Assembly (NCBI GenBank): GCA_934693165.1
Contig: CAKUUX010000001.1
Location: forward strand, 41,206-105,205
Length of the DNA stretch: 64,000 nt
From: an uncultured Candidatus Melainabacteria bacterium
GTDB lineage: Bacteria > Cyanobacteriota > Vampirovibrionia > Gastranaerophilales > Gastranaerophilaceae
Direction: 5' to 3'
In this document: one piece after another, positions 6,507 to 60,370 of the stretch
How positions within the stretch are numbered: position 1 is the stretch's first letter
How the letters are laid out: the number at the start of each line of letters is the position of its first letter
Notes under the pieces: generated by a model
Databases searched by the model: none
Told to the model about the DNA's origin: nothing
Seen by the model: only the letters and a program-made list of their open reading frames with translations
Position numbers and translations under genes: made by a program

Positions 6507-6743
6507 ATGTATCCAATAGAGCTATCTTTGAGTAGACCAAAAAATATTTTGACAGTAAGAGAAGAAGAAGTTTTGATAGAATTAATAAATGGTAAAAATA
6601 ACTATGAAATTGCAAATGATTTGTACATAAGCGTACATACTGTAAAATTTCATGTTGCATCTATCCTCCAAAAATTTGGTGTTTCAAGAAGGACAATGGT
6701 TATCTTGAAAGCTTTAGCAGATGGATGGATAGATATTATCTAA
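6507..6743 (+). CDS. Small LuxR/GerE-type HTH DNA-binding protein (stand-alone).
   Basis: LTVREEEVLIELINGKNNYEIANDLYISVHTVKFHVASILQKFGV matches the LuxR-family HTH signature. A strong SD (AAAGGAGG) lies 7 nt upstream of the ATG. Confidence 0.65.
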   Translation: MYPIELSLSRPKNILTVREEEVLIELINGKNNYEIANDLYISVHTVKFHVASILQKFGVSRRTMVILKALADGWIDII

Positions 6744-27600: not shown

Positions 27601-27917
27601 GCGCAGCTTATACTCTTCAAGAAATGCTTACAATCAAATCAGATGATGTTAACGGACGTAACAGAGCTTACGAATCAATCGTTAAAGGTGATAACATTCC
27701 AAGACCTGGTATTCCAGAATCATTCAAAGTACTTGTAAGAGAATTACAAAGTATCGGTTTGGATATCACAGTTGCTAAGAAAGACGGTGTTGAAGTTGAC
27801 TTAATGAGCGATATGGACGACTTAAGAAAAGCTGCTCCAAAACGTACATTATCAGATATTGACTCAGAGTTGTTAAATATCAACTTCTTTGAAACACCAA
27901 CAACATTTGGTGACTAG
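24606..27917 (+). CDS. rpoB: DNA-directed RNA polymerase beta subunit.
   Basis: 1103 aa with universally conserved RpoB blocks ([37 protein letters not shown]; NMQRQSVPL; [14 protein letters not shown]). SD is GAGGT. Confidence 0.97.
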
Positions 27918-27987
27918 TAAATAATTATAGCGAAATGTGGAAGATTTCTTTCACATTTCGCCAAAGTATATAAAGGAGAAATAATAA

Positions 27988-29697: not shown

Positions 29698-29721
29698 AAA
29701 GTTAGTTAAGGATAATAAAAA

Positions 29722-32700
29722 ATGGAAAATATGTACACACAAACAAAAAATGCTCCAGAATTTATTAATAAACAGATGGATAAAAAAGCTTTAAACAAGC
29801 TATTATCTCAAATTTATCTTGAATACGGCGGAGCTAAAGCAGCAGAACTTGCTAATACATTAAAAAATTTGGGTTACCATTACGCAACTAAATCAGGCGT
29901 AACAATTTCAATTTCTGACTTGTCAGTTCCAGAATCTAAAAAAGATTTATTGAACGAAGCAGAAGCAGAAATTGAAAAATCTACAACTCGTTATTTAAAA
30001 GGTGAAATTACAGAAGTAGAAAGATATACAAAGGTTATCGACACTTGGTCTGAAACAACAGCTAAATTAACAGCTCAAGTAGTTGAAAACTTTGATAGAT
30101 TGAACCCAGTTTATATGATGGCATTCTCAGGTGCCAGAGGTAACTTATCACAAGTATCACAATTAGTTGGTATGCGTGGATTGATGGCAGATGCGCAAGG
30201 TCAAATCATCGACTTACCTATTAAAGCAAACTTTAAAGAAGGTCTATCTTGTACAGAATACATCATTTCATCATACGGTGCTCGTAAAGGTCTTGTAGAT
30301 ACAGCGTTAAAAACAGCTGACTCTGGTTACTTAACAAGACGTCTAGTTGACGTTGCACAAGATGTTATCATTCGTGATGCTGATTGCCATGGCACAAAAC
30401 ATATCATGTTAAAGAGTATTACTGATGGTGGTTCTGTTATCGTTCCTTTAATCGATAGATTATTAGGTAGAACAATTGCACAAGACATTGTTGATGAAGA
30501 TGGTACAGTTCTTGTAACAGCAAACACAACAATGGGCCGTGAAGATATTGAAAAAATTCGTCACTTAAACTTAGAAGAACTTGCAGTTCGTTCAGGTTTA
30601 ACTTGTGAATTAGAATATGGTGTTTGCCAAAAATGTTATGGTTGGGCAATGACAACTCAAAAACTTGTTGATGTTGGTGAAGCAATCGGTATTATCGCAG
30701 CTCAATCAATTGGTGAACCTGGTACACAGTTAACAATGAGAACATTCCACACAGGTGGTGTATTCAAAGGTTCTGGTGCTATGAAAACTGTTGAAGCTAA
30801 AGATTCTGGTAAAATCTCTTGCAAATTAAAAACTAGAGAAGTAAGAACTCGTCACGGGGATGTTGTAAAACTTTCTATGTACGAAGTTGAAGCCGAAATC
30901 AAAGGTGCTAAGAGAACAACTAAATACCACATTCCTGCTGGTGCAACAATCTTCTTTACAGATGGTCAAGAAGTTGAAAAGGGATTCAAACTTGCTGAAT
31001 ACGAACCAGTATCACAAGGGGATGGTTCTCGTTTAACAGAAAAAGCTACAAAAGATATTACATCTGACTTATCAGGTGAAGTTATTTTCAAAGACTTTAT
31101 TGCTGATGAAAAGAAAGATAGACAAGGTAACATTTCAAGAACAGCTAACAAACAAGGTATTGTTTGGGTTCTTGGTGGTGATGTTTATAACTTACCAAGT
31201 GGTTCAAAACTTTTAGTTAAAGACGGTCAAAAAATGAAAGAGGGCGAAAAGCTTGCTGAAACATTGACTGTTTGTGAACACGGTGGTGAAGTTCGTATTG
31301 GTCAAGACCTTGTTATTGAAGAAACAAAATTTGAAGGTCATAAAATCAAGAAGATTGTTCAAGGTAAAGAATTAACAATCGTTATTGCATCATTAATGCC
31401 ATCAAATGCTACATTTGAACAAACTAAGAAAGAACAACTTTGGACAGTTGAAGCAACTGGTGAAAAATATATTGTTAAATCTCCAGTTGATACTCCAGTT
31501 GAAAATGGTATGATTATTGCCGAATTAATCAATGGTGACTGCTCAGTTGAATCTTCTGGTGAAATCAAATATATCGACGTTGAAGTTGATGAAAATCAAA
31601 TAATTACAAAATCAGGTGATGTTGTATTTATTCCTGAAGAAGTTCACCAATTAAGCAAAGATTCTGCTTTAAAAATGGTTGAATCAGGAAGTTATGTAAC
31701 AGCTGGTACAGAAATCGTTAAAGACGTATATTGTCACTTAGACGGTATCGTTGAAATTAAAGAATACAATGATGTAATTCACGAAGCTGTAATCAGACCT
31801 GGTCAAATTCATACATTATCAAGTGTTTCTGAATTAAAAGTTGAAGAAAACGAAGTTATCAAAAAAGGAACAGTTATTGCAGACGGTATTAAAGCAAAAG
31901 AAACTTCTATCGTTACAGTAATGGATTCTGAAGATGATTTCGCTGATATCGATGATTTAGATGAAGAACTTGATACATCATTGAGTTTGGATGAAGAAAA
32001 CATTACAGACAAACCAATTCAAATTTTGGTAAGACCTGTAAAAGTTATCAAAATTAAACCTCAAGAAGTTTCAATTAAATTTGACAAAACTGATGATTTA
32101 ATTGACATCGTTCCTGTAACACAATTACAATATAAAGACGGTGCTAGAGTTAGAAATCTTGACGGTGCTACATTAACAAGAACAAGTTTAGTTCTTCAAA
32201 TGCAAGGTTACTTATCACACTTAAAAGGTATGGTAGAACTTGATAAGAACAATAACTTGAAGATTGTTGTATTAGAAACATTAATTGTTCGTCGTGAAAT
32301 TGAAGGTAATTCTAAATTGAATTCTTCAATGCAAACTGAATTGTTAGTTAACCACGGTGACGTTATTGAACCAAAAACTCCAGTTGCAAAAACACAAGTA
32401 CTAGTAATCAATGATGGTGTTGCTTCAATTAAGAAAGCTGAAGAAGACGCAAGAAGATTATTATTAGTTTGTGAAAACTTTGAATCAAAAGTTGCAATTA
32501 AAACAAAACCTCTTGTAAAAGCTGGAGATATGGTTAAATTAGACGATTTACTATCAGAAGGTGGCGACAGATCACCAGTTTCTGGTCAAGTAGTTTCTGT
32601 ATCAAAATCAGAAGTAGTCGTAAGAGAAGGTAGACCATACTTAATCAGCCCAGGTACTCAGTTACTAGTTGAAGAAAATTCATTAGTACTACGTGGTGAT

Positions 32701-33567
32701 ATGTTGGCTACATTGTTATATGAAAGACAAAAAACAGGTGATATCGTTCAAGGTCTTCCAAGAGTTGAAGAATTACTTGAAGGTAGAAAACCTAAAGATA
32801 GTGCAATTCTTGCTGAGTTTGACGGTAAAGCTATTATTGAAACAGATGATGATATGCCAAGATTGTATTTAGAAACTGAAGACGGTTCAAGAACTGAAAT
32901 CAAATTCGCAATTGATGCAAATATTATCGTTTCAAACGGTGAAAAGATTAAAAAAGGTCAACCATTAACAAGTGGTTCACTAAATCCTCATGACGTTATG
33001 AGATTATGTGGTCCAGAAGTTGCACAACAATATCTAGTAGATGAAGTACAACGTGTATATCGTTCACAAGGTGTAGAAATTGCTGATAAACACATTGAAA
33101 TCATCGTTCGTCAAATGACTAAGAAAGTTAAAGTTATCGAACCAGGTGATACAAAACTTCTTCCAGGCGAACTTGTTGAAATGCAAACATTTGAAAAAGA
33201 AAACAAGGAAGCAGTTGCGAACGGTTTACAAGCAGCAACTTGTGAATACATGTTATTAGGTATTACAAAAGCTTCATTGAATACTGAATCATTTATTTCA
33301 GCAGCTTCATTCCAAGAAACAACAAGAATTCTTACTGAAGCAGCTGTAGATGGTAAGAAAGACTTATTGAGAGGTTTGAAAGAAAACGTTATCATTGGTC
33401 GTCTAATCCCTGCAGGTACAGGTTACCATCACTTGACTCATGCAAATGAGGAAAAGGATAAAGAAGCACAAAGAAGAGCAGCAGCACGTAACCAAGCTAG
33501 AAAACCTTCTGCAATCTTAGAAGAAATTGAAGGTATGTTTGGCGCTCCTGACTTCACTATTGAGTAA
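29722..33567 (+). CDS. rpoC2: DNA-directed RNA polymerase beta-prime C-terminal portion with a large lineage-specific insertion.
   Basis: 1281 aa. It begins at the conserved G region ([16 protein letters not shown]), and has a long insertion between the trigger-loop segments. Its own SD is AAGGAT. Confidence 0.95.
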
Positions 33568-39263: not shown

Positions 39264-41225
39264 ATGATGAAAAAGTTTAAACCACTAATAATTTTTATAG
39301 CTGTTATAGTTTTTATGTTCATTACGTATTTTATTTTCAACTTTTTTGTTGAACCAAAATTTTATAATGTAATGATGAATGGCATAGTAGCCGACAAGGC
39401 TGGTCATAGCGATACAGTTATTATAGTTATTGATGACAAATCAATTTCTAAACAACGTTGGCCATGGAAAAGAGATATGTATGCCAAAATGTTTAATTAT
39501 TTGGACAAATATACAAATGCTAAATTGATTGGTTTTGACTCAATTTTATCTTCTGTTGATAAAGATAATTTTAAGGCCGATTTAGAACTCTACAAATCTG
39601 TTGAAAAAAGTAATAAATTAGTTGTTGGTTTTGCTCCATTAATAAAAGCTTATTCTGATAAAACCATTGGTGATATGTATGACAAAGCTTTTGATGAAAA
39701 ATTTGGAATAAAGATAAATGATGAACGTTCTCAAAAAGCGAGAAGTCCATTTAAAAGTTTATCAATGTATCCAGAAGGATATTTCAAAGCTGCAAAAGAT
39801 GTTGGTTCTGTATATGTCGAACTTGATAGAGATGGCTATATAAGAACAATTCCTCAATTATTATCATACAAAGGTAAATTATATCCATCATTAGGTTTGA
39901 GAATGTATGCCAAATTGAATGGTATTACAGAATTTACTGTAACAGATAAATATATTACAAATAATAAAACCGATTTAAAAATCCCTGTTAATCAATCATA
40001 CACAGCAATGTTTAACTATATGCATTTTTATAAAACATTGCCTCAATCAGAATATTCAAGAAAAACATATTCTGCAATTGATATAGTTGACTCTTGGGAT
40101 AATATTCAAAAAGGTAAAAAACCTGTTATTGATCCAAAAGAATTCGATGGAAAAATTGTTTTTGTTGGTGCAAATGCAAAGGCTGCAGCGTTAGGATTGG
40201 AAGATGCTTTGCCAACTCCAATTCATCCGAAACACCCTGGGGTTGATATTCAGGCTACAAACTTAGATAATTTACTGTATGATGAATTTATTGTTCCAAC
40301 TCCTATTTTACAAGATTTTATCGTACAAGTTATTTTAATCTTAGCGACTTTCTTAATTGTAACTTATTACTCATTGTTTATGTCACTGGGTATTATCGCT
40401 CTTATGATGGTTGCATACATTGCTATTTGTATAACATTTTTTAAATTTAATGTTGCAATCAATGTAATAACTCCTCTTGCGCTTCAATTAATTACAATGA
40501 TTTTTGGTTATTCTTACAAATTTATTCTTGAAGCAAGAAACAAAGATAAAATTAAAGACGCAATGGGAAGATATATTTCTCAAGACGTTATGAGAAATGT
40601 CGTAAGCAATATTGATAACTTATCTCTTGGTGGAAAACGTTCTAATGTTACAGTTTTATTTGCTGATATTAGAGGGTTTACATCTATGAGTGAAAAGCTT
40701 ACTCCAGAAGAAATTTCACTAATTTTGAACGAATATTTTACAGAAATTGAACCTATAATTACAAAATACAATGGCGTAATCAACAAGTTTATTGGTGATG
40801 CTGTAATGGCAATCTTTGGTGAACCTATCCAAGACAAAAACCATGCTCTAAATGCTGTATTATGCGCAAATGCTATGCTTAAGAAGGTTAAACAATTACA
40901 AGAAAAATGGTTGTATGAAGGTAAACCAAAAATTGAAATTGGTGTTGGTATAAATACTGGTGATGCTTTCGTTGGTAATATTGGTTCTGAAAAACGTCTT
41001 GAATATACAGTAATTGGTGATACTGTTAACTTAGCCTCTCGTCTTGAAAGTTATAATAAAATCTACAAAACTAACTTCTTAATCAGTAGTTCAACATACG
41101 ACGAGGTTAAAGGTTATGTTGATGTTATTAAAATTTCAGAAGTTCAAATTCGTGGTAAAGCTAAAAAAATGAATATCTATGAAATTTTAAGGATTACAAA
41201 TAATGAAAAAAGTACTAATAGTTGA
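39264..41225 (+). CDS. CHASE2-domain class III adenylate/guanylate cyclase (membrane sensor cyclase).
   Basis: N-terminal transmembrane segment, a ~300-aa extracytoplasmic CHASE2-like domain, three transmembrane segments, then a cyclase catalytic domain (VTVLFADIRGFTSMSE...FIGDAVMAIFGEP...GINTGDAFVGNIGS..YTVIGDTVNLASRLES). Confidence 0.8.
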   Translation: MMKKFKPLIIFIAVIVFMFITYFIFNFFVEPKFYNVMMNGIVADKAGHSDTVIIVIDDKSISKQRWPWKRDMYAKMFNYLDKYTNAKLIGFDSILSSVDKDNFKADLELYKSVEKSNKLVVGFAPLIKAYSDKTIGDMYDKAFDEKFGIKINDERSQKARSPFKSLSMYPEGYFKAAKDVGSVYVELDRDGYIRTIPQLLSYKGKLYPSLGLRMYAKLNGITEFTVTDKYITNNKTDLKIPVNQSYTAMFNYMHFYKTLPQSEYSRKTYSAIDIVDSWDNIQKGKKPVIDPKEFDGKIVFVGANAKAAALGLEDALPTPIHPKHPGVDIQATNLDNLLYDEFIVPTPILQDFIVQVILILATFLIVTYYSLFMSLGIIALMMVAYIAICITFFKFNVAINVITPLALQLITMIFGYSYKFILEARNKDKIKDAMGRYISQDVMRNVVSNIDNLSLGGKRSNVTVLFADIRGFTSMSEKLTPEEISLILNEYFTEIEPIITKYNGVINKFIGDAVMAIFGEPIQDKNHALNAVLCANAMLKKVKQLQEKWLYEGKPKIEIGVGINTGDAFVGNIGSEKRLEYTVIGDTVNLASRLESYNKIYKTNFLISSSTYDEVKGYVDVIKISEVQIRGKAKKMNIYEILRITNNEKSTNS

Positions 41226-41580
41226 TGATTCAAGAAGTTGGGTTTCTTATCACAAAGAAAACTTGCTTTGTAATTACAAAGACATAGAAATTGATACAGC
41301 TCTATCAGCTAGAGATGCTTATGACTTGGTTTTTGGAATGACTTCTAATCCTTATGATTTAATCATAACAGATTTGCACATGGAGTATGATTTTGAACCT
41401 CTATATGCAGGTGAGTGGCTTATACAACAAATTCAACTTTTAAAACAATATTACAAAACAAAAATCTACATCTGTTCTGCAGCGTCTAATATAAAAATGA
41501 TTGCAGAAAGATATAACGTCGATTTTATTCCAAAACCTCTTGCTTCAAGAGATATAACTGTCTACGAAAATCTATTTTAA
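41203..41580 (+). CDS. Stand-alone response-regulator receiver (REC) domain protein.
   Basis: 125 aa. LIVDDS..DLIITDLHM carries the phospho-acceptor Asp. The gene overlaps the 3' end of the cyclase gene by 23 nt. Confidence 0.65.
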   Translation: MKKVLIVDDSRSWVSYHKENLLCNYKDIEIDTALSARDAYDLVFGMTSNPYDLIITDLHMEYDFEPLYAGEWLIQQIQLLKQYYKTKIYICSAASNIKMIAERYNVDFIPKPLASRDITVYENLF

Positions 41581-43350: not shown

Positions 43351-44805
43351 TTATTCTGAAATGTCTTCGCTGTTTTCAAGAAGTTGGTTAAGTTGTTTTG
43401 CAGAGATTCTTGGTTGGTTAATTGTTGCATTACCACCACAACAACCACTTTCACAGCTCATAACTTCTACAATATTGCAATTTGGACATTCGTTTTTTGT
43501 AGCATATTGTTTAAGTTCCTTGATTGTAGCTTTGTTTAAACCATTAATAATACATGGTTTAGCATCAGGTGCTAAGAATTGTACTGCTTTTGCAACACCA
43601 CCTGATACACCAAAGTTTCTACCTTGTTTAGAACTTGTTGTTTCAAATTGTGTTTCTTCGCAATTTAATACGTCGATTTGTCGACCAATGAATAATGCGC
43701 CAAGTTCTTCGTAGCTCATTACAAAGTCAACGTTGTCATTTGCTTTACCTTCTGAACGTTTTGCAACACATGGGCTTACAAATACTGCAATTGTTTCAGG
43801 TTCTGCTTTTTTAACAAGTTCTGCTGTATAGTAAAGAGGTGTTTTTGTTGTTGAAACAAAAGGTTTAATTTCTGGTAAATGCTTTGCAACAAGGTTGTTG
43901 TAAGCTGCACAACAAGAAGTTGTCATAAAGCTTGCGCCTTCTTCCATTCTTTCTTTAAATTCTGCAGCTTCATTTTTTGTTGTTATGTCTGCCCCTTGTG
44001 CTACTTCAATAACATCATCAAATCCAGCTTTTACTATAGCTGTTTTTAATTGATAAAGTGTCCCTGGGAATTGTCCAACGATTGATGGTGCAATCATTGC
44101 TACAACTTTTTTATCAGATTTAATTGCTTTTAAGATATCAATTAATTGACTCTTTTCGTGTACTGCGCCAAATGGGCATGCTGCAATACATTTACCACAG
44201 CTAATACATTTTTCAAAATCGATACTTGCAAAACCAGTTTCGTCTTTTGAAATAGCACCAACAGGACATGCTGCTTCACATGGAACAGTTGTTTGTACTA
44301 TTGCACTATATGGGCATGCATTCATACACATTTTACATTTTTTGCATTTTGTTGTATCGATGTGAGATTTGCCGTCTACGATTGAAATAGCACCAAACTT
44401 ACATGTTTTTTCGCAAGGTCTTGCAACACAGCCTTGGCATAAATCTGTTACGTGAATTTGACTAGGTACACAACCTTTGCAAGCTGCTTGTAATACTGTC
44501 AAATTTCTATTATCTAATTCTGTTCTTTTTAAAGCTTCTTTTGCATAAGTGTGAAGTGATTTTCTTTCATCATCTTCTTCAATTTGGAAACCAAGTCCTG
44601 CAATTGCTCTATCTTTAAGAATTGCTCTTTCTTTATAGATACAACATCTATAAGGAACTTCAGCTCCTTTTGGTCTCATATCATAGGGGATTAGTCTTGT
44701 ATTTTCTGCAAAATCTTCTGAAAAGAATGCTTTTACAAGTCTAATTAAAATTTCTTTTTTTAAATGTATTGATTGTGCGTTATTATTCATTTTCCTGTCT
44801 TCCAT
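43351..44805 (-). CDS. [FeFe]-hydrogenase catalytic-subunit-like protein (HydA-like) with N-terminal ferredoxin-type FeS clusters and divergent H-cluster motifs.
   Basis: Several CxxCxxCxxxCP ferredoxin motifs (CKKCKMCMNACP, CISCGKCIAACP). The H-domain motifs are L1 TSCCAAY (canonical TSCCPxW), L2 SPCVAKRSE (canonical MPCxxKxxE), and L3 EVMSCESGCCGG (canonical ExMxCxxGCxxGG). Confidence 0.75.
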   Translation of the reverse strand: MEDRKMNNNAQSIHLKKEILIRLVKAFFSEDFAENTRLIPYDMRPKGAEVPYRCCIYKERAILKDRAIAGLGFQIEEDDERKSLHTYAKEALKRTELDNRNLTVLQAACKGCVPSQIHVTDLCQGCVARPCEKTCKFGAISIVDGKSHIDTTKCKKCKMCMNACPYSAIVQTTVPCEAACPVGAISKDETGFASIDFEKCISCGKCIAACPFGAVHEKSQLIDILKAIKSDKKVVAMIAPSIVGQFPGTLYQLKTAIVKAGFDDVIEVAQGADITTKNEAAEFKERMEEGASFMTTSCCAAYNNLVAKHLPEIKPFVSTTKTPLYYTAELVKKAEPETIAVFVSPCVAKRSEGKANDNVDFVMSYEELGALFIGRQIDVLNCEETQFETTSSKQGRNFGVSGGVAKAVQFLAPDAKPCIINGLNKATIKELKQYATKNECPNCNIVEVMSCESGCCGGNATINQPRISAKQLNQLLENSEDISE

Positions 44806-44835
44806 ACCTTAAAATTTACATACAAAATTATACTA

Positions 44836-45093
44836 TTATTTATTTAAAATTTCATTAATTTTTTCTAAAACTTTTTCAGTTGTAGCTTCAGAAATTATTT
44901 CGTCATTTACTCGTACATAAGGAGCTTTTGAATATTCTGTATTTTTTGAACACATTTCTAAGCATGTACTTCCGTTTATTTCAACTTTATCTCCATATTT
45001 TCTTGGTACGATGTCTATTAATTCTTGCAAATGAGAGCCACCCATTACAAAACACGTTGTTCCTAAGCATACGTCAACTTTAATCTTTTCCAT
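44836..45093 (-). CDS. Thioredoxin-like [2Fe-2S] ferredoxin (NuoE/HydC-like small protein).
   Basis: 85 aa. Cys pattern CLGTTC ... CLEMC (Cx4C...Cx3C) is typical of the thioredoxin-like 2Fe-2S family. Confidence 0.6.
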   Translation of the reverse strand: MEKIKVDVCLGTTCFVMGGSHLQELIDIVPRKYGDKVEINGSTCLEMCSKNTEYSKAPYVRVNDEIISEATTEKVLEKINEILNK

Positions 45094-45102
45094 ATTTTCT
45101 CC

Positions 45103-46260
45103 TTACATGTACTGTATTATTACTTTTTTAAAATATTTATTTTCCAGAATGTCTGAAATCTTTTTTATGACATTTTTACGAATTTCAATTTCAATAGGTA
45201 AATTGGGGTCGTAATGTGCCTGATTTAATTTTGCACCAACCATAAAGGTTATGCAATCTGTATCTAACATAAATTTTACAAGAGCACCTGCTGCATCATC
45301 CTGAAATTCGCCTGTATCAAGGTATTCACATGCTTTTGTTAAGGTTAAGATACCTTCTGTTACTAGGTCTATTCCTTCCATATAAGATATTGCAGGAAGT
45401 TTTCCAACGCTCAAGTTAATATTAGTTTTGATAGGAATATTTAATTCTCTTGAAACTAAATTTGCTGTTGTTCCCCCAGAAATAGCTTTTTTGCCATTGA
45501 AATCCATTAGGGCTTGAGCATAGAACTTATCTTTTGCCTGATGATATGGTGGACCTGTAAATACTACGGCGTTTCTTGGTTCTCTATAATAAACACAAAC
45601 TGCTGATATATCGTCTTTTGCTTTTCTATCAGGTTCTTTCAGAATAGCTTGTTTTACAATTCTTTTTGCTAAGTTTGAGCTAGAAATATTAGGTTCTTTC
45701 TCTAATTCTTTTTTTACAATTTCAATTAAACCTTCTCGTCGTAATCCAAGTCTTAGGTCTTTTGTTCCTAATGCTGCTTGAGTTACGCCGTCTGAGCAAA
45801 ATACTAATCTATCATTTGTTTGCATTTTTAAATGATAAATATGCATGTGTCTATTTGGAAATTCTTTTGATGTAAGAATTTCAAATTCTGGTTCTAAAAC
45901 TTCGCCGTTTCTTATCCATAAAAATTGTGGATTTCCTTCTTCTACAATTTTTGCGTTTCCATCTTCATTGCAATCAAGCGCTGAAAAAGTTGAGTAACTT
46001 ATTTTTCTAACCTGACATACTGGAAGAGAGTTCATAACTGTTTCACATGCTTTTTTAATGCTTGTTCCTTCTTCCATAAATTTAAGTAACATTGTTGATG
46101 TCATGCAAGCTAAAATATTGGCTTTTATTCCACTTCCTAATCCGTCAGAAAGTACTGCCAAAAGTCTTCCTGAATCAGTAAAACGTTTTGAAGTGAAATA
46201 ATCCCCAAAAGTGTTTTGGTTATATTTTTTTTCTTGCGCAACGTCGATGTCGATAAACAT
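45103..46260 (-). CDS. PP2C/SpoIIE-type serine phosphatase with a C-terminal domain of unknown function.
   Basis: LAVLSDGLGSGIKANI and RLVFCSDGVTQAALG are the PP2C metal-binding Asp motifs. The gene overlaps the HydS stop by 1 nt. Confidence 0.6.
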   Translation of the reverse strand: MFIDIDVAQEKKYNQNTFGDYFTSKRFTDSGRLLAVLSDGLGSGIKANILACMTSTMLLKFMEEGTSIKKACETVMNSLPVCQVRKISYSTFSALDCNEDGNAKIVEEGNPQFLWIRNGEVLEPEFEILTSKEFPNRHMHIYHLKMQTNDRLVFCSDGVTQAALGTKDLRLGLRREGLIEIVKKELEKEPNISSSNLAKRIVKQAILKEPDRKAKDDISAVCVYYREPRNAVVFTGPPYHQAKDKFYAQALMDFNGKKAISGGTTANLVSRELNIPIKTNINLSVGKLPAISYMEGIDLVTEGILTLTKACEYLDTGEFQDDAAGALVKFMLDTDCITFMVGAKLNQAHYDPNLPIEIEIRKNVIKKISDILENKYFKKVIIQYM

Positions 46261-47984
46261 TACAATTCTTCTCCGTCGTCATCAGAATTATCGTTAGAAT
46301 AGTCTTCTGCAATAGAATTTAGAAGAACTTCCGTTTCAACCATGTGTTCACCCAATAAACATGCTATTTCTTGAACTTTTGTGATGTTCTTTTTAATAAC
46401 TTCTCTTGCTTTTGTTGCAATTTTTTCTCTATCAATTTCGGCTTTTGTTACATCAGTTATTACTGCACCTACGATTTCGCCGTCTTCAATTGTAAAAGCG
46501 TTTATATCATATAATTTGTTTTTAACTTGGTAATGCGATTTATGAATATCCCCACCAGATTTTAGTAATTGGCTGAAAATATCGCTAAAAGAGATTATTC
46601 TATCAATTGATGCACCCGATAAACCTTCTTTTCTTGAGGCAAAAATTTCGTACATATCGCCACAGAACATTTTCATAAAAGCGTCGTTTGCTTCTACAAT
46701 GTTCAAATCTTTATCTACCATAACAATGGCTGATGGCATGCATCTAAGCATTGCTGCTGCTTTTCGCATTGCAATTTTTCGCATATAAGAAATACACATT
46801 GAAGGTTCGGCGTCACCCTTAACAAGCGCTTTTGCCATATCTCTACATGTTGAATATCCACATCCACCACAGTTTAATTCGTCATCTGGCGTATGTTTAC
46901 CAATTTTTTTCAATGCATTTGTTATGTCTGCGAATTTAACGTCATCTTCGATAACTGGTTTGCTTACATATTCTTTTTCAAAAACTGTTTCAGCTATCTT
47001 AGGAATTTCATCCCTATGTTTTATTTTAGATAAAATATCTGTCGTGATAGCAAGTCCAGCCTTTTTGCTAGAAATACAAGGTCCATTTATACAACCTGTT
47101 TCACAAGATAGGGCTTCTACAAAAATTTTATTGTTAATAGAGTTAATGTTTAAGCCTTCCATTGTTTTATCGAAGGTTTCTAATCCACTGATTTTAACAA
47201 GTGATATATCATCATTTATTCCAACTTCTTTAATCGTATCAATCATTCCACCTTCAATTGGGTATAATGCCCCTTCAAAAGCTTCTTCTGGAACGAATTT
47301 ATCGCTAGATTTTACTTCAATTTCGTTTATGTTGATAAATTCTTCACTTATCCAGTAGTTTAATTCTTCAAAAGTTAAAGCTACATCAATAAAATCAGGG
47401 TTTGAATCGGCTTCGTTTTTCTTTCCGATACAAGGTCCAATAAATACAATACTGATATTATCACCGTATTTTTCCTTCAACATTTTGGCGTGAGTTAAAG
47501 CTGGTGATGCAACGGGTGTAATATATTTTGCAAGTTCAGGTTTGTAATATCTTATATAGTCGACAATTACAGGGCATGCGCTTGAAATATATAATCCGTT
47601 TTCGCCTTCATTAAGCATTTCTGCTGTTTTAATTGAAACTTGTTGAGCACCTAAAGCTGTTTCACTCACTGCATAAAAACCCAGTTTTTTAAGCACTGCA
47701 ACCATTTGTTGTTGTGTTAGGTCATAAATACCTGACCAACTTGGAGCAAGTGATACATATACTTGTTTTTGAGCTGTTATCAGAGTTTTAACTTTATCAA
47801 TATCACTTCTAACTTTTTTAGCACCAGAAGGACAAACCTTTACACAGTGTCCACAAGCGATACATTTATCTTTGATTACAGAGGCACTGCCGTCTTGAAA
47901 TTTAATAGCTTTAATATGGCATTCTCTTACACATTTATAACAGTCATGGCATTCATTTTTTAATGTATAAACTGGATATGTCAT
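46260..47984 (-). CDS. hydS: Sensory (group C) [FeFe]-hydrogenase HydS: ferredoxin domain, H-cluster domain, and a C-terminal PAS domain with an accessory 4Fe-4S motif.
   Basis: N-terminal CHDCYKCVREC and CIACGHCVKVCP. H-domain motifs SSACPVIV (L1 variant), GPCIGKKNEA (L2), FVEALSCETGCINGPC (L3). Then NCGGCGYSTC-x16-C, an exact Cx2Cx4Cx16C, followed by a PAS fold (MLRCMPSAIVMVDKDLNIVEANDAFMKMF...). Confidence 0.8.
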   Translation of the reverse strand: MTYPVYTLKNECHDCYKCVRECHIKAIKFQDGSASVIKDKCIACGHCVKVCPSGAKKVRSDIDKVKTLITAQKQVYVSLAPSWSGIYDLTQQQMVAVLKKLGFYAVSETALGAQQVSIKTAEMLNEGENGLYISSACPVIVDYIRYYKPELAKYITPVASPALTHAKMLKEKYGDNISIVFIGPCIGKKNEADSNPDFIDVALTFEELNYWISEEFININEIEVKSSDKFVPEEAFEGALYPIEGGMIDTIKEVGINDDISLVKISGLETFDKTMEGLNINSINNKIFVEALSCETGCINGPCISSKKAGLAITTDILSKIKHRDEIPKIAETVFEKEYVSKPVIEDDVKFADITNALKKIGKHTPDDELNCGGCGYSTCRDMAKALVKGDAEPSMCISYMRKIAMRKAAAMLRCMPSAIVMVDKDLNIVEANDAFMKMFCGDMYEIFASRKEGLSGASIDRIISFSDIFSQLLKSGGDIHKSHYQVKNKLYDINAFTIEDGEIVGAVITDVTKAEIDREKIATKAREVIKKNITKVQEIACLLGEHMVETEVLLNSIAEDYSNDNSDDDGEEL

Positions 47985-48221
47985 TTATGATAAACCTTTC
48001 AATAATGAGTTTAATACTTCTGGAGTAACGTTAGAATAATGTTTTCCGTCAATGTACAAATTAGGGCCATCTGCACATTTTCCTTCGCAATGAGAGCCAA
48101 CAAGTTCAATTTTTGCATCTAAACCATTTTCTTTTATATAATTCTCAATAGTTTCTACGTTTTGAGAATTTCCTCTTGCGAAACAAGCGCTTCCCATGCA
48201 TATCTTAATTTCTGTAGTCAT
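47985..48221 (-). CDS. Thioredoxin-like [2Fe-2S] ferredoxin.
   Basis: 78 aa. CMGSAC ... CEGKC (Cx4C...Cx3C). Its stop codon abuts the HydS start codon. Confidence 0.6.
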   Translation of the reverse strand: MTTEIKICMGSACFARGNSQNVETIENYIKENGLDAKIELVGSHCEGKCADGPNLYIDGKHYSNVTPEVLNSLLKGLS

Positions 48222-48223
48222 TT

Positions 48224-48847
48224 TTAAACCTCATCATCATTGTTGGTGAATTGTAAAAAGTTTCCTATTAAGTTTTCGTTCCAAACTTTTATGCCTTCAG
48301 GAACATCTAAAACGCTTGGTGTAAAGTTCCAAATGTATTTTATTCCAGAATTTGCAAGGTATAATGCTGTGTCATTCGCAAATTCTCTAGGAACTGTTAA
48401 AATTGCAATGTTTACTTTTAATCTTTCTGCTAAATTTGGTAATTTTGAAACATGGAAAATTTCTTTTCCTTTTATTGAATTACCAACTTTTAATGGGTCA
48501 TTATCAAATAGGGCTAGTATATTTAAACCATAATTTTCAAAATTGTCGTATTTTGCAAGTGCCATACCCAAGTTACCTGCACCAACAATAAATACGTCTT
48601 TTACTTTTTTGAAACCTAATGTGTGTTCTATAGAATCTTTTAATTCTTTTACAGAGTATCCAACTTTGCATTTACCAACGTTATTTAAGAATTTTATATC
48701 TTTTCTAACTTGAGAATCATCAACATTAAGTCTTGAACCGATTTGAGGACTAGAAATGAATTCAATGCCTTTTTCATTGTACTCAACTAAAATACAATGA
48801 TAAAGAGTTAATCTATTTATTACTTTGTCTGTTAATTTTGTTTTCAT
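48224..48847 (-). CDS. rex: Redox-sensing transcriptional repressor Rex.
   Basis: N-terminal winged helix (VINRLTLYHCIL), Rossmann NADH-binding fold (VFIVGAGNLGMALA), and a C-terminal domain-swap helix. It is the first gene of the hydrogenase operon. Confidence 0.85.
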   Translation of the reverse strand: MKTKLTDKVINRLTLYHCILVEYNEKGIEFISSPQIGSRLNVDDSQVRKDIKFLNNVGKCKVGYSVKELKDSIEHTLGFKKVKDVFIVGAGNLGMALAKYDNFENYGLNILALFDNDPLKVGNSIKGKEIFHVSKLPNLAERLKVNIAILTVPREFANDTALYLANSGIKYIWNFTPSVLDVPEGIKVWNENLIGNFLQFTNNDDEV

Positions 48848-48889
48848 TTTGTCCTATTTTTGTTGTTATTTTCGATAAGGATTTTTCTA

Positions 48890-48930
48890 TAAAAACCCCA
48901 AACCGACAAAATGTCGGCTTGGAGTTTTTT
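48890..48930 (-). terminator. Rho-independent terminator of adhE.
   Basis: Minus-strand reading: AAAAAACT CCAAGCCGACA-ttt-TGTCGGTTTGG GGTTTTTAT. It lies between the adhE stop and the rex start. Confidence 0.8.
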
Positions 48931-48940
48931 AAGTTATTAA

Positions 48941-51640
48941 CTATACAACACCGTTAAATGCGTCGATATAGATTTGTTTAATATCTGACATCAATGGATA
49001 TGCTGGGTTAGCACCTGTACATTGATCGTCGAATGCTAATTCAACTAACTCGTCTAAGTGTTCATTCCAGTATTCTTTAGTGAAGCCAGCTTTTGTGATG
49101 AATTCTTCAATAGAATTTGGTAAGTTGATAGCTTTCATTAATCTATCAATTGCTTTAATTAATAATTTAACTTTTTCGTCATCATTTTTACCACCTAATT
49201 GTAATTCATCAGCAATTTGACCGTATTTAGCCTTCGCACAAGGATATTTATATTGTGGGAAGATTGCTTGTTTGTGTGGAGCATCAGAAGCATTGTATTT
49301 AATTACTTGTCTGATTAACAATGCGTTAGCTACACCGTGTGGAACGTGGTACATAGCACCAAGTTTGTGAGCCATTGAGTGACATAATCCTAAGAATGAG
49401 TTAGCGAATGCCATACCAGCAATTGTTGCTGCATAGTGCATTTTTTCTCTTGCGATAGGATCGTTAGCACCTTCATTGTAACTTCTTTCCAAGTATTTAA
49501 ATACTAATTTTGAAGCTTCTAAAGCATTTGAATTAGTAAAGTTTGTTGCCATACAAGAAACGTAAGCTTCAATTGCGTGAACTAATGCGTCAATACCAGA
49601 TGCAGAAGTTAAACCTTTTGGCATACCATCAACGAAGTTAGGGTCGATAATTGCCATGTTTGGTGTTAATGCGTAATCAGCGATTGCGTATTTAACGTGA
49701 GTTTCGTCATCTGTGATGATAGCGAATGGTGTTACTTCTGAACCAGTACCTGATGTTGTTGGAATTGCAACCATTGTTGCTTTTTTACCTAATTCTGGTA
49801 ATTGACAGATTCTCTTTCTAATATCCATGAATCTCATAGAAATATCTTCGAATACTGTGTCAGGTTGTTCATACATTAACCACATAATTTTAGCTGCGTC
49901 CATTGGAGAACCACCACCTAATGAAATAATTACATCTGGTTCAAATGGTTTTAAGATAGACATTGCTTGGTTAATTGTTGACAATGTTGGATCTGGTTTA
50001 ACGTCGAAGAATACTTGGTGTTCAATACCAATTTCATCTAAAACGTTAGTAATTTTGTTTACTGCACCTGAGTTGTATAAGAAACTATCTGTTACGATAA
50101 AGGCACGTTTTTTACCTTGAAGTTCTCTTAATGCTAAATCAGTAGCACCTCTCTTGAAGTAAATTTTTGATGGAGCCTTAAACCATAACATATTTTCTCT
50201 CCTTTCAGCTACAGTCTTATAGTTTAATAAGTGTTCAACACCTACGTTACCTGAAACAGCGTTGCCACCCCAAGAACCACAACCTAATGTTAATGATGGT
50301 TCTAATTTGAAGTTGAATAAATCACCAATACCACCTTGAGATGATGGAGAGTTGATTAATACACGGCAAGTAGGCATTTTTTCAGCGTATGCGTTGATTC
50401 TATCGCTCTTTCTTTCGTCTGTGTACAATACTGATGTGTGACCTGCGCCACCTTTGCTTACTAATTCGTAAGCCATTTCAGCAGCTTGTTCGTAATCTTT
50501 AGCTTTGTACATAGCTAAGATTGGAGATAATTTTTCTCTTGAGAATGGATCGTTCCAGTCAACTTCTGGTCTTTCAACTAAAAGAATTTTTGCATCTTCT
50601 GGAGTTTTGAAACCTGATAATTCAGCGATTTTGTGTGCTGATTGACCAACGATTGCAGGGTGAGCTGTTCCTCTAGCAGGATCGATAAATGGTAAGTCTA
50701 CCATTTTCTTTTGTTCTGCTTTGTTTACAAGGTAAGCACCTCTGTATAAGAATTCTTTTTTAACTTCTTCGTAAACATCTTCAACAACTACTACTGATTG
50801 TTCTGATGCACAAATCATACCGTTATCGAATGTTTTTGACATAAGGATTGAAGATACAGCCATTTTAATATCAGCTGTTTCGTCAATTACTGCAGATGTA
50901 TTACCAGGACCTACACCTAATGCTGGGTTACCTGATGAATAAGCTGCTTTAACCATTCCTGGACCACCTGTTGCTAAGATACAATCAATTTTAGGGTGTT
51001 TCATCAATGCACTTGATAATTCGATTGATGGAACGTCAATCCAACCGATGATATCTTTTGGAGCACCAGCTTTAACTGCTGCATCTAAAACTAATTTAGC
51101 TGCTGCAATTGTTGATTTTGTTGCTCTTGGGTGTGGTGAGAAGATGATTGCGTTTCTTGTTTTTAAAGCAATTAATGATTTGAAAATTGCAGTTGAAGTT
51201 GGGTTTGTTGTAGGAATGATACCTGCTAAAACACCTAAAGGTTCTGCTACGATTTTTGTACCATTTGCTTTATCTTCTTTGATAACACCACAAGTTTTAA
51301 CGTTTTTGTGTTTGTTATAAATGTATTCTGAAGCGAAGTGGTTTTTGATAATTTTATCTTCTAAAACGCCCATACCAGTTTCTTCTTTAGCCATTCTAGC
51401 TAGAGGAATACGAGCTTTGTCTGCTGCTGTAGCAGCTGCTTTGAAGATTTTATCAACTTGTTCTTGAGAATAGTGTGAATATTCTTCTTGAGCTTTGTGT
51501 ACTCTATCAATTAGAGCCTCAAATGCTTCAACACTATCTACTAAATTAGAAGCATTATATGCTTTTTCTAATTTTTCAACAGCATCTTGTTTTTTTGAAG
51601 ACTTTTTAGTTGCTGTCTTCTTTGTTGTTGTTTTTGGCAT
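48941..51640 (-). CDS. adhE: Bifunctional acetaldehyde-CoA/alcohol dehydrogenase AdhE, with a Lys/Thr-rich N-terminal extension.
   Basis: ALDH domain (catalytic ..GMICASEQS..) plus an Fe-ADH domain (GGGSPMDAAK; HSMAHKLG). ATG at 51638-51640 has an AAGGAG SD. The longer track ORF begins at a TTG at 51694 with no SD. The conserved AdhE core starts about 27 aa after MPKTTTKKTATKKSSKK. Confidence 0.9.
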   Translation of the reverse strand: MPKTTTKKTATKKSSKKQDAVEKLEKAYNASNLVDSVEAFEALIDRVHKAQEEYSHYSQEQVDKIFKAAATAADKARIPLARMAKEETGMGVLEDKIIKNHFASEYIYNKHKNVKTCGVIKEDKANGTKIVAEPLGVLAGIIPTTNPTSTAIFKSLIALKTRNAIIFSPHPRATKSTIAAAKLVLDAAVKAGAPKDIIGWIDVPSIELSSALMKHPKIDCILATGGPGMVKAAYSSGNPALGVGPGNTSAVIDETADIKMAVSSILMSKTFDNGMICASEQSVVVVEDVYEEVKKEFLYRGAYLVNKAEQKKMVDLPFIDPARGTAHPAIVGQSAHKIAELSGFKTPEDAKILLVERPEVDWNDPFSREKLSPILAMYKAKDYEQAAEMAYELVSKGGAGHTSVLYTDERKSDRINAYAEKMPTCRVLINSPSSQGGIGDLFNFKLEPSLTLGCGSWGGNAVSGNVGVEHLLNYKTVAERRENMLWFKAPSKIYFKRGATDLALRELQGKKRAFIVTDSFLYNSGAVNKITNVLDEIGIEHQVFFDVKPDPTLSTINQAMSILKPFEPDVIISLGGGSPMDAAKIMWLMYEQPDTVFEDISMRFMDIRKRICQLPELGKKATMVAIPTTSGTGSEVTPFAIITDDETHVKYAIADYALTPNMAIIDPNFVDGMPKGLTSASGIDALVHAIEAYVSCMATNFTNSNALEASKLVFKYLERSYNEGANDPIAREKMHYAATIAGMAFANSFLGLCHSMAHKLGAMYHVPHGVANALLIRQVIKYNASDAPHKQAIFPQYKYPCAKAKYGQIADELQLGGKNDDEKVKLLIKAIDRLMKAINLPNSIEEFITKAGFTKEYWNEHLDELVELAFDDQCTGANPAYPLMSDIKQIYIDAFNGVV

Positions 51641-51761
51641 TTTTTTATTTCTCCTTTTTTTAGTGGGTAATCGTGATTTATTTCCTGATAGCAACAGTAT
51701 AAAAAATATTAAGTGTTTTTGTCAACCCTTAATCGTTTTCCAGTATTTACAAGCCTTAACA

Positions 51762-51779
51762 AAGTGATTTTTGTCACGA
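51762..51779. promoter_or_regulatory. Putative Rex operator upstream of adhE.
   Basis: AAGTGA-TTTTTG-TCACGA is an inverted repeat GTGA-N6-TCAC matching the Rex box core (TTGTGAA-N6-TTCACAA). It sits about 40 bp upstream of a TTGACA-N18-TATACT sigma-70-like promoter (minus strand, 51725-51696) that drives adhE. Confidence 0.4.
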
Positions 51780-58520: not shown

Positions 58521-59444
58521 ATGGCACTTTTAGAATCTTCTAAGCAATATCTTGAAATGTTTAAGACATATTTGATTGTTGAGAAAAACTTTTCTGAACA
58601 CACTCTAAAAGCGTACACTTCTGACTTATTGACATTTTTGATTTGGTTAAAAGATATTCCATGCACTTCTGTTAATTATACAAAACTTAGAGAATATCTT
58701 TATTTTATTCAAAAATTTGATTATAAAAAAACTACCGTCGCTAGAAAATTAGCGTCTGTTAGAACATTTTATAAGTTTTTATATAGAGAAAAAATTATGG
58801 AGATTAATCCTGCAAGTAATTTGAATTCTCCAAAAAGACCGAAATCGTTGCCAAAATTTTTAACTCCACAAGAAATGGAAAAGATTTTGAATAACGTAAA
58901 AATGGATACGCCAGCAGGTTATAGAAATAAGGCAATTTTAGAACTTCTTTGGGCTACAGGCATGCGTATTAGTGAATTGAGTGGGCTTAATTTTGGGGAC
59001 TTAAATCTCGATAATAACGAAATTAGAGTTTTTGGTAAAGGCGCAAAAGAAAGAATTGTTCTTGTGACTGATAGGGCAAAAACTTATTTGAAAAGATATA
59101 TTGAAAATGCTAGACCTTTAATTGTTGCAAAAGGTTTTAAGCTAGAAGAAATAACAGAGAGTACACCAGTTTTTATTAATAATACTGGATATAGACTTCA
59201 AAATAAAACCGTAAGAAATGCTATAAAAACAGTTGTTGATAATATTCAATTGCCCAAAAAAGTTACTCCACACATGTTTAGACATAGCTTTGCAACAAAA
59301 CTAATTGAAAATGGAGCAGATTTGAGGGTTGTACAAGAACTTTTGGGGCACGCTAGTATTTCAAATACCCAAATTTATACTCATATCAGCACAAAACACT
59401 TGCAAGATGTTTATGAAGCTTCTCATCCGAGGGATAATTTATAA
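58521..59444 (+). CDS. xerC: Tyrosine recombinase, XerC/XerD family.
   Basis: Catalytic residues in ATGMRISEL (R), KGAKER (K), HMFRHSFAT (H-R), and LLGHASISNTQIYTHI (H..Y). SD is AGAGGGG. Confidence 0.8.
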   Translation: MALLESSKQYLEMFKTYLIVEKNFSEHTLKAYTSDLLTFLIWLKDIPCTSVNYTKLREYLYFIQKFDYKKTTVARKLASVRTFYKFLYREKIMEINPASNLNSPKRPKSLPKFLTPQEMEKILNNVKMDTPAGYRNKAILELLWATGMRISELSGLNFGDLNLDNNEIRVFGKGAKERIVLVTDRAKTYLKRYIENARPLIVAKGFKLEEITESTPVFINNTGYRLQNKTVRNAIKTVVDNIQLPKKVTPHMFRHSFATKLIENGADLRVVQELLGHASISNTQIYTHISTKHLQDVYEASHPRDNL

Positions 59445-59497
59445 AATTCGGCTATTTATATTATTAATTTAATTTGAAAAAATATTATAATTTAGGT

Positions 59498-60370
59498 ATG
59501 AGTATTCAAGATTTATCAGAATATTTAGACTTTCTTGATGTAGAAAGAGGTCTTTCTCAAAATACAATAGATGCTTATAGAAGGGATTTAGAGGCATTTA
59601 TTGAATTTTGTTTTGCAAAATTTTCTGTGGATGAAAAAAATATTACTAGATTAATGGTGAATACTTATTTGAGAGATTTGCATGAAAATCATTATAACCC
59701 AACGAGTATTTCTCGAAAGATAGCATCTTTAAGGGGATATTATAAATGGTTAAGTGCAAATGAAAAAATAACTTCAAATCCAATAGATACGATAGAAATG
59801 CCAAAACTTCCCCAAAGATTGCCAAAAATCTTATCTGTTGAAGAAATAAAAAAAATGCTTGCAGAAGATTTAAATCCATTAGAAAGAGTTGAATTAGAAC
59901 TTTTGTATGGTTCAGGTCTTCGTGTGAGTGAGCTTGTTGATTTAAAAACAAACAGTTTTGATTTGAGTCAAAAATATCTTGTTGCAAGAGGTAAAGGTTC
60001 AAAAGAAAGAATTGTTCCTTTTAATAATGTTTCGGCAAGTGCGATTGAGGATTATTTAAAGATTAGAGATTTTATTCTCAAAAAATTTAGACTTGATACA
60101 AAGAATTTCTTGGTAAACAATGAAGGGCGTTTTGTTACAAGACAAGATATTTATAATTTTATCCACAAATTGGGAGAAAAATTTCATAAGAATATTTCAC
60201 CACATACAATGCGACATAGCTTCGCAACACATTTGTTAGAAAATGGTGCAGATTTGAGAGTTGTACAAGAACTTTTAGGTCACAGCGATGTTTCTACCAC
60301 TCAACTTTATACACATATTAGTAAAAAGCGTTTGAAAGATGTTTATTTTGCAATAAACGGAGCAGGATAA
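59498..60370 (+). CDS. xerD: Tyrosine recombinase, XerC/XerD family (second copy, in tandem).
   Basis: GSGLRVSEL, RGKGSKER, HTMRHSFATHLLENGADLRVVQELLGHSDVSTTQLYTHI. ATG at 59498 is preferred over the track's TTG at 59474. Confidence 0.8.
   Translation: MSIQDLSEYLDFLDVERGLSQNTIDAYRRDLEAFIEFCFAKFSVDEKNITRLMVNTYLRDLHENHYNPTSISRKIASLRGYYKWLSANEKITSNPIDTIEMPKLPQRLPKILSVEEIKKMLAEDLNPLERVELELLYGSGLRVSELVDLKTNSFDLSQKYLVARGKGSKERIVPFNNVSASAIEDYLKIRDFILKKFRLDTKNFLVNNEGRFVTRQDIYNFIHKLGEKFHKNISPHTMRHSFATHLLENGADLRVVQELLGHSDVSTTQLYTHISKKRLKDVYFAINGAG

Follow-up and report, generated by a model that had tools for sequence, protein, structure and literature searches.

The window analysed here is a 64-kb stretch of contig CAKUUX010000001.1, and it comes from a Gastranaerophilales bacterium of the human gut, a member of the Melainabacteria, which are the sister lineage of cyanobacteria without photosynthesis. 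Within it, hydS encodes a putative sensory [FeFe] hydrogenase of 574 amino acids (aa), and it stands in a block of genes that all lie on the minus strand in the order adhE, hairpin, rex, 2Fe-2S ferredoxin, hydS, PP2C phosphatase, 2Fe-2S ferredoxin and group B hydrogenase (Table 1). From rex to the phosphatase gene the block is very tightly packed: rex ends 2 nt upstream of the first ferredoxin gene (junction TAA-AA-ATG), the stop codon of that ferredoxin gene abuts the hydS ATG (TAAATG), and the hydS stop and the start codon of the phosphatase gene share 1 nt (TAATG), junctions of the kind usual in translationally coupled genes. The group B hydrogenase gene follows in the same operon, 1.5 kb downstream of hydS, and its product is the probable regulated, ferredoxin-dependent H2 producer of the block.

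Table 1. Position, strand and basis of assignment of the features in and around the hydS operon (coordinates are those of the window; AF2, AlphaFold2; ORF, open reading frame).
Feature	Coordinates	Strand	Basis
hydS, 574 aa, putative sensory [FeFe] hydrogenase, group C (M2f-type)	46260..47984	-	ORF, Pfam, AF2
HydS F-domain, two [4Fe-4S] motifs	47811..47960	-	direct reading, Pfam Fer4
HydS H-domain	47070..47768	-	alignment with CpI
HydS accessory-cluster motif Cx2Cx4Cx16C	46794..46871	-	direct reading, PF04060
HydS predicted PAS domain, residues ~417-512	46449..46736	-	AF2 secondary structure, Foldseek
HydS predicted long C-terminal output helix, residues 513-561	46302..46448	-	AF2, LOV-kinase matches
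PP2C/SpoIIE-family Ser/Thr phosphatase, 385 aa	45103..46260	-	Pfam SpoIIE, PDB SpoIIE matches
First thioredoxin-like [2Fe-2S] ferredoxin, 78 aa, Cx4Cx31Cx3C	47985..48221	-	Pfam 2Fe-2S_thioredx, 44.9 bits
Second thioredoxin-like [2Fe-2S] ferredoxin, 85 aa, before group B hydrogenase gene	44836..45093	-	Pfam, 26.2 bits (cut-off 24.8); synteny
Group B ‘monomeric’ [FeFe] hydrogenase	43351..44805	-	NCBIfam TIGR04105, 502 bits (cut-off 450)
rex, NADH/NAD+ redox-sensing transcriptional repressor	48224..48847	-	Pfam Put_DNA-bind_N and CoA_binding
adhE, bifunctional aldehyde/alcohol dehydrogenase	48941..51639	-	Pfam
Intrinsic-terminator-like hairpin with U-run, between adhE and rex	48895..48930	-	RNA folding
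Rex-type operator core GTGA-N6-TCAC	51764..51777	.	upstream of adhE promoter

Domain architecture and H-cluster site of HydS

Residues of HydS were mapped by aligning the Clostridium pasteurianum enzyme CpI (a reference copy identical to PDB 1feh/3c8y over 574/574 residues) with HydS, the neighbouring group B hydrogenase and seven homologues, and residue conservation was counted in 72 HydS homologues of 65-96% identity. At the N-terminus, residues 9-58 match several Pfam Fer4 (4Fe-4S ferredoxin) families and carry two [4Fe-4S] motifs, CHDCYKCVREC at 47919-47951 and CIACGHCVKVCP at 47829-47864; the eight cysteines of this F-domain are unchanged in the homologues. The H-domain follows (Pfam Fe_hyd_lg_C, PF02906, 163.7 bits, residues 73-302), with the three H-cluster motifs reading SSACPVIV (L1, residues 134-141, 47562-47585), GPCIGKKNEA (L2, residues 183-192, 47409-47438) and SCETGCINGPC (L3, residues 293-303, 47076-47108).

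The original prediction, made by reading the sequence, took L1 to be non-canonical, with alanine in place of the proton-relay cysteine, and the alignment with CpI bears this out: SSAC of HydS pairs with TSCC of CpI, C299 being replaced by A136 and the ligand C300 corresponding to C137, and A136 is found in 71 of the 72 homologues. Aligned by HMMER with the HydA chains in 8a6t and 7p5h, HydS shows L1 in the same register, so a misassignment of this motif is excluded and no canonical TSCCP occurs in HydS. The alanine had also been taken for a substitution of the sensory type, which agrees with published sequences, as Thermotoga maritima HydS (TmHydS) has A131 at the C299 position and alanine stands there in ~43% of sensory-group sequences (PMC10055695).

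As H-cluster ligands HydS has C137, C185, C294 and C298, equivalent to CpI C300, C355, C499 and C503, and all four are present in 72/72 homologues. The residues that make contacts to CN- or the bridge are equally invariant (72/72), with CpI K358, E361, P231, S232 and P324 retained as K188, E191, P81, S82 and P161. Because the four ligands and all of these contact residues are present, HydS is predicted to be able to bind an H-cluster. The claim that L2 and L3 are retained stands for their Cys ligands and for K188 and E191, but not for the methionines framing the 2Fe subsite, which are replaced by G183 (M353) and L292 (M497) in HydS and in each of the 72 homologues. Beside these sites, L3 holds an extra cysteine in GCINGPC (Cys303, 47076-47078) that 67 of the 72 homologues share and that neither CpI nor the HydS of Ruminococcus albus has.

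The proton pathway of group A enzymes is lost altogether, as HydS keeps none of its five residues in the CpI alignment: C299 is replaced by A136, E279 by T120, R286 by M123 and S319 by T156, and E282 falls in a gap. The neighbouring group B hydrogenase, in contrast, keeps the TSCC motif and C299, E279, E282, R286 and S319. Judged by these residues, the same operon appears to encode a ‘fast’ (group B) and a ‘slow’ (HydS) hydrogenase side by side.

C-terminal to the H-domain, C372, C375, C380 and C397 (CGGCGYSTC-x16-C) show exactly the Cx2Cx4Cx16C spacing that had been read from the sequence at the outset, PF04060 (‘FeS’) matches residues 370-398 with 44.5 bits against a cut-off of 23, and all four cysteines are present in 72/72 homologues; like that of A136 and of the H-cluster ligands, this conservation goes beyond chance. 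A PAS domain had been proposed to follow this cluster. Pfam PAS families remain below their cut-offs here (PAS_9, 23.6 bits vs 27; PAS_8, 21.6 vs 21.8), but fold comparison speaks clearly for the proposal: when the AF2 model of residues 359-574 (predicted local distance difference test score, pLDDT, 77.5) was compared with the PDB using Foldseek, 116 chains matched at E <= 0.001 and the top 50 were all PAS or LOV domains, among them Aer2, YF1 and LOV-kinase chimeras, CitA (template modelling score, TM, 0.73 on the target), FixL, EcDOS, PYP, NtrB and BvgS. The predicted topology comprises two strands, several helices and three strands (beta-beta-helices-beta-beta-beta) and ends in a helix of ~50 residues. 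As modelled, the C-terminal domain of HydS thus has a PAS fold. The full-length model (pLDDT 81.3, from a 72-sequence alignment) finds its best PDB matches in the [FeFe] hydrogenases CbA5H, TmHydA and CpI, which are catalytic enzymes only, and neither sequence nor fold search returned a structure of a PAS-bearing sensory [FeFe] hydrogenase from the PDB.

The matches to YF1 and the LOV-kinase chimeras continue across the linker helix of the model, suggesting that the long C-terminal helix of HydS behaves like a PAS output helix. Part of this helix, the motif VQEIACLLGEHMVETE (residues 537-552, 46329-46376), is nearly invariant in the family and has a counterpart, VQEIASLLGETTAETK, in R. albus HydS by pairwise alignment; the pattern common to the two is VQEIAxLLGExxxET, and we regard the motif as a candidate partner-docking surface. 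Searched alone, the C-terminal module (cluster domain, PAS and helix) recovers 154, 565 and 935 cluster representatives (50% identity) at E <= 1e-30, 1e-10 and 1e-3, respectively, and most of the proteins that have it are 555-630 residues long and carry it at their C-terminus. The number of these representatives indicates that the architecture is common.

Lineage, operon conservation and class assignment

A scan with one genome per species yielded 426 relatives, of which the best 80 (HydS 63-96% identity) were used for the locus counts that follow. By title, almost all of these 80 are Melainabacteria, Gastranaerophilales or ‘Cyanobacteria bacterium’ metagenome-assembled genomes from guts and rumen. 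In 79 of the 80 loci hydS is immediately preceded by the first ferredoxin gene, the SpoIIE/PP2C gene is present in 78, and the phosphatase gene, ferredoxin gene and group B hydrogenase gene follow hydS in that order in 62 of the 66 loci that extend far enough. The cassette is therefore conserved across the order Gastranaerophilales; adhE followed by rex stands upstream of the operon in 25 of 64 informative loci. An identical HydS protein was read on 22 public contigs, among them one of 218 kb from a Hadza gut, and 64 collection blocks list it in their index. Eight loci (L002, L005, L008, L011, L019, L040, L052 and L064) have the same gene order and a HydS of 65-92% identity under titles outside the Melainabacteria, such as Methanobacteriaceae archaeon, Anaerovoracaceae, Alistipes senegalensis, Muribaculaceae, Desulfovibrio sp., Brachyspira sp. 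CAG:484 and Clostridium sp.; these contigs are probably mis-binned or mislabelled Gastranaerophilales sequence. In the window itself, the beta' subunit is encoded behind rpoB by two separate genes, rpoC1 (569 aa) and rpoC2 (1281 aa) (24606-33567); this split is a hallmark of cyanobacteria and agrees with the assignment to Melainabacteria.

The phosphatase matches Pfam SpoIIE with 57.2 bits over residues 30-224. Its C-terminal ~160 residues (~225-385; 45106-45588, minus strand) have no Pfam match at E <= 5 and no PDB match with a 12-sequence profile, and are conserved to the same degree as the catalytic domain (mean conservation 0.71 vs 0.69 in 78 orthologues), with the motifs FTGPP, KKAIxGGTTA, DLVTEGILTLT and VGAxxNxAHYDPxLP. 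Over its full length, this C-terminal half included, the protein aligns with the SpoIIE-family protein of R. albus.

The best promoter-like site of the region (TTGACA-18-TATACT, 51725-51696) lies just upstream of adhE, and the Rex operator core GTGA-N6-TCAC, one copy of which lies just upstream of this promoter, has three copies in the window where shuffled sequence would give 0.5. In the window block and 1.18 Mb of related loci we found 24 exact cores, 18 of them no more than 300 nt upstream of either adhE or the ferredoxin-hydS operon. Cores in the relatives include L005:4235, L006:4232, L021:6423 and L022:7726, and several cores read as the canonical TTGTGA-N6-TCACAA. In genomes that do not have adhE next to rex, the cores precede the ferredoxin-hydS operon instead, by 33-43 nt (up to ~80 nt in L033). 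This positional bias is clear, though the loci are related and the events not independent. The strict 14-base Rex consensus TTGTGAANNNNTTCACAA, with <= 3 mismatches allowed, is not enriched in the window (16 vs 14.5 expected), and what carried information was the core GTGA-N6-TCAC alone, with its position across related loci.

Published definitions of group C (M2f) comprise a two-cluster N-terminal domain, the H-domain, the Cx2Cx4Cx16C motif, a PAS domain and the loss of Cys299 and the proton pathway (PMC8163306, PMC13104023, PMC10055695). HydS has the H-domain ligands, the N-terminal clusters, the Cx2Cx4Cx16C motif and a predicted PAS domain, with C299, the pathway residues, M353 and M497 replaced, so that its architecture as read from the sequence is that of the published group C putative sensory type; the sensory architecture that had been ascribed to HydS agrees, element by element, with the literature. 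HydDB describes subtype C3 as ‘phosphatase-linked’ (PMC5037454), and here the link is visible at the gene level in the PP2C gene that overlaps the hydS stop. With R. albus HydS as query, the HydS of the window scores 265 bits and the group B hydrogenase 125 bits. NCBIfam, which is without a group C model, gives the group B model as best match for HydS, at 194.6 bits against a cut-off of 450. Assignment to the catalytic group A is rejected, as HydS is without TSCCPxW, Cys299, the proton pathway, M353 and M497 and its NCBIfam group A scores are far below the cut-offs. Group D (M2e), the PAS-less variant that typically has Ser or Thr at the M353 position (PMC8163306, PMC13104023), is excluded by the PAS domain and by Gly183, which is present at that position in 72/72 homologues.

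Several described enzymes resemble HydS closely. TmHydS and the group D enzyme TamHydS of Thermoanaerobacter mathranii were compared by published description, with residues taken from the papers. TmHydS has the same domain order, alanine at C299 (A131 vs A136), glycine at M353 and no group A pathway (PMC10055695, PMC8163306), but Ser rather than Leu at the M497 position, and its host is a thermophilic member of the Thermotogae and not a gut Melainabacterium. TamHydS shares the N-terminal clusters, H-domain, Cx2Cx4Cx16C motif, pathway loss and Leu at M497 (PMC8163306), but it is without the PAS domain, and its group typically has Ser/Thr where the HydS described here has Gly183.

At the level of the gene cluster, the nearest counterpart is that of R. 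albus 7, taken from the annotated sequence of plasmid pRUMAL01, which has the order rex, adhE, APH/RIO-like phosphotransferase, two 2Fe-2S ferredoxins, hydS, SpoIIE-family phosphatase and hydA2. For seven of the eight proteins the window block encodes a homologue that aligns over the full length (HydS 32% identity, phosphatase 26%, HydA2 34%, AdhE 59% and Rex 38%, and both ferredoxins match), and the two HydS proteins share their architecture, the sub-threshold PAS matches and the C-terminal helix motif. The clusters differ in that adhE precedes rex here and one ferredoxin gene sits between the phosphatase and second hydrogenase genes, and in that the R. albus cluster is plasmid-borne and ours chromosomal. 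By description, hfsABCD of Thermoanaerobacterium is likewise similar, with a PAS hydrogenase (HfsB), a PP2C (HfsC), a ferredoxin-linked catalytic hydrogenase (HfsD) and a functional connection with the expression of adhE and the yield of ethanol (PMC5707799, PMC11837493); adhE and rex are outside the operon there, in contrast to the 25 informative loci in which they are adjacent here. A parallel in working principle is HoxBC with the PAS kinase HoxJ of Ralstonia eutropha, where a slow H2-binding hydrogenase and PAS signalling control hydrogenase expression (PMC5707799, PMC8163306), but this [NiFe] regulatory hydrogenase is unrelated in metal centre and protein family, and its output is a histidine kinase and response regulator, with no PP2C phosphatase.

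Proposed role and competing explanations

Taken together, HydS is probably a group C (M2f-type), phosphatase-linked putative H2-sensing [FeFe] hydrogenase (HydS/HfsB type) of human-gut Gastranaerophilales. The overlapping PP2C gene and the presence of a group B hydrogenase, rex and adhE in the same block add support for a sensory role beyond what had been noted from hydS itself. By analogy with described systems, H2 would be split slowly at the H-cluster of HydS, a redox or conformational change might then reach the translationally coupled PP2C by way of the PAS domain and output helix, and the phosphatase would dephosphorylate a target protein. The output, as in R. albus and Thermoanaerobacterium, could be control over AdhE and over the ferredoxin-dependent group B hydrogenase encoded alongside, such that high H2 would send reducing power to ethanol and low H2, with a syntrophic partner present, would favour acetate. 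Rex may provide a second input, the NADH/NAD+ ratio, through GTGA-N6-TCAC sites upstream of adhE or of the hydS operon. Removal of H2 by a partner lowers expression of the R. albus cluster 111-fold (PMC6776011), and in Thermoanaerobacterium deletion of hfsB, the hydS homologue, raises adhE expression and ethanol yield (PMC5707799, PMC11837493).

A number of points weigh against this interpretation. H2 sensing is called ‘putative’ throughout the literature for the whole class, and H2 does not reduce the C-terminal cluster of TamHydS, a group D enzyme (PMC13104023), a result that speaks against the simplest relay model. In R. albus HydS the C299 position is still Cys (SSCC), and alanine there is thus not required for the class. 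The APH/RIO-like kinase of R. albus (L081 6703-7452) has no homologue in the window block (43351-51694, tblastn E <= 1e-2) or in the 80 related loci (tblastn E <= 1e-3), and the cassette therefore has a phosphatase but no cis-encoded kinase. The maturases HydE/F/G are not among the ORFs of the 64-kb window, so that maturation capacity is not shown from the window, though HydE and HydG were reported in one Gastranaerophilales single-cell genome (PMC5877343). Lastly, the strong terminator-like hairpin separates adhE from rex, and the ~45 nt between it and rex contain no recognisable promoter.

It has to be considered that HydS is not a sensor but a low-activity catalytic or electron-transfer subunit of a multi-subunit, PP2C-regulated hydrogenase of the Hfs type, together with the group B enzyme and the two 2Fe-2S proteins. 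In favour of this, the genes lie close together and are conserved as a set, a separate 2Fe-2S ferredoxin gene stands before each hydrogenase gene, TmHydS and TamHydS turn over H2 at low rates (PMC10055695, PMC8163306), and the whole hfs operon is needed for H2 production in Thermoanaerobacterium (PMC8924675, PMC11837493). A subunit of this kind would not be expected to have lost, in strictly conserved fashion, the five pathway residues and both methionines while its group B partner keeps the pathway, nor to end in a PAS domain and output helix, which form a signalling module; moreover, hfsD alone suffices for the hydrogenase phenotype, and hfsB deletion alters regulation and not H2 capacity (PMC11837493, PMC5707799). 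We consider this explanation unlikely.

If the sensory reading of HydS is followed, the missing kinase invites a more specific and rather doubtful extension: in a kinase-less HydS-PP2C circuit, the C-terminal domain of the phosphatase would dock on the output helix and the enzyme would act directly on Rex, AdhE or the group B hydrogenase, so that H2 and NADH/NAD+ would converge post-translationally on the choice between ethanol and H2.

Quite improbable, in our judgement, is that HydS senses redox state (reduced ferredoxin or the NADH pool) rather than H2 by means of its four Fe-S clusters and PAS domain, with a vestigial or empty H-cluster site. The PAS domain of HfsB has indeed been described as possibly responsive to redox potential (PMC11837493), the C-terminal cluster of TamHydS is unresponsive to H2, a dedicated 2Fe-2S protein is encoded directly upstream of hydS, and the window is without maturase genes. 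An empty site, however, sits poorly with the invariance of the four ligands and of K188, E191, P81, S82 and P161 across the homologues, which argues for selection on H-cluster binding; Rex already provides an NADH/NAD+ input in the same operon, and HydE and HydG have been reported in one single-cell genome of the order (PMC5877343). That HydS is a decaying, non-functional paralogue, as might be supposed from its lack of residues held essential in catalytic group A enzymes, is effectively refuted by conservation, given an intact ORF, the identical protein on 22 public contigs and in 64 collection blocks, 63-96% identity with synteny kept over 80 species-level genomes, and a C-terminal module with 565 cluster representatives at E <= 1e-10.

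Significance and further features of the window

The original prediction regarded the co-occurrence of these elements as notable in this lineage, and this holds in part. The Melainabacteria papers searched describe trimeric and monomeric [FeFe] hydrogenases and HydE/HydG, and mention no sensory enzyme (PMC3787301, PMC4040986, PMC5877343, PMC6349859), but the cassette is conserved across the Gastranaerophilales and similar clusters exist in Ruminococcus and Thermoanaerobacterium, so it represents expected biology and not an oddity. HydS is thus a member of a well-described class in an additional lineage, in which the missing cis-encoded kinase is the only real variation, and no new category is called for. 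Di Rienzi et al. (PMC3787301) stated that the [FeFe] hydrogenase of gut Melainabacteria is without L2 and L3; both hydrogenases of the window (43351-44805 and 46260-47984) carry the L2 and L3 Cys ligands, in non-canonical motif contexts, and this early statement therefore does not hold for either of them.

If the H2-sensing role is correct, gut Melainabacteria would gauge H2 partial pressure and NADH/NAD+ together, and both inputs would set the choice between H2 via the ferredoxin-only hydrogenase and ethanol via AdhE. The same regulated switch is seen in R. albus, where it responds to H2-consuming partners, and its presence here would refine the 2013-2019 view of Melainabacteria as simple syntrophic H2 producers. 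For enzymologists, the family offers a mesophilic, strongly conserved group C enzyme with Ala at C299, Gly at M353, Leu at M497 and the extra Cys303, and the native phosphatase partner of HydS could help to find the signalling output of sensory [FeFe] hydrogenases.

The hairpin between adhE and rex was spotted by reading the sequence and confirmed by folding (-26 kcal/mol, z-score -8.35), and was missed by a consensus terminator scan. As for adhE itself, the ORF list places its start at TTG 51694, which lies within or beside the -10 hexamer of the promoter described above. The true start is probably ATG 51639, because a ribosome-binding site precedes an ATG there (MPKTTT...) and public gene calls of AdhE have 899 aa.

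Beyond the block, a CHASE2-domain adenylate/guanylate cyclase (653 aa) and an overlapping stand-alone receiver-domain protein (125 aa) are encoded at 39264-41580, and the pair is kept beside the block in the closest relatives. Further away are a 649-aa protein with a Peptidase_S74 (endosialidase chaperone) domain (22273-24222), a 1131-aa protein whose only domain is an N-terminal double zinc ribbon (6740-10135), and two tyrosine recombinase genes in tandem (58521-60370).

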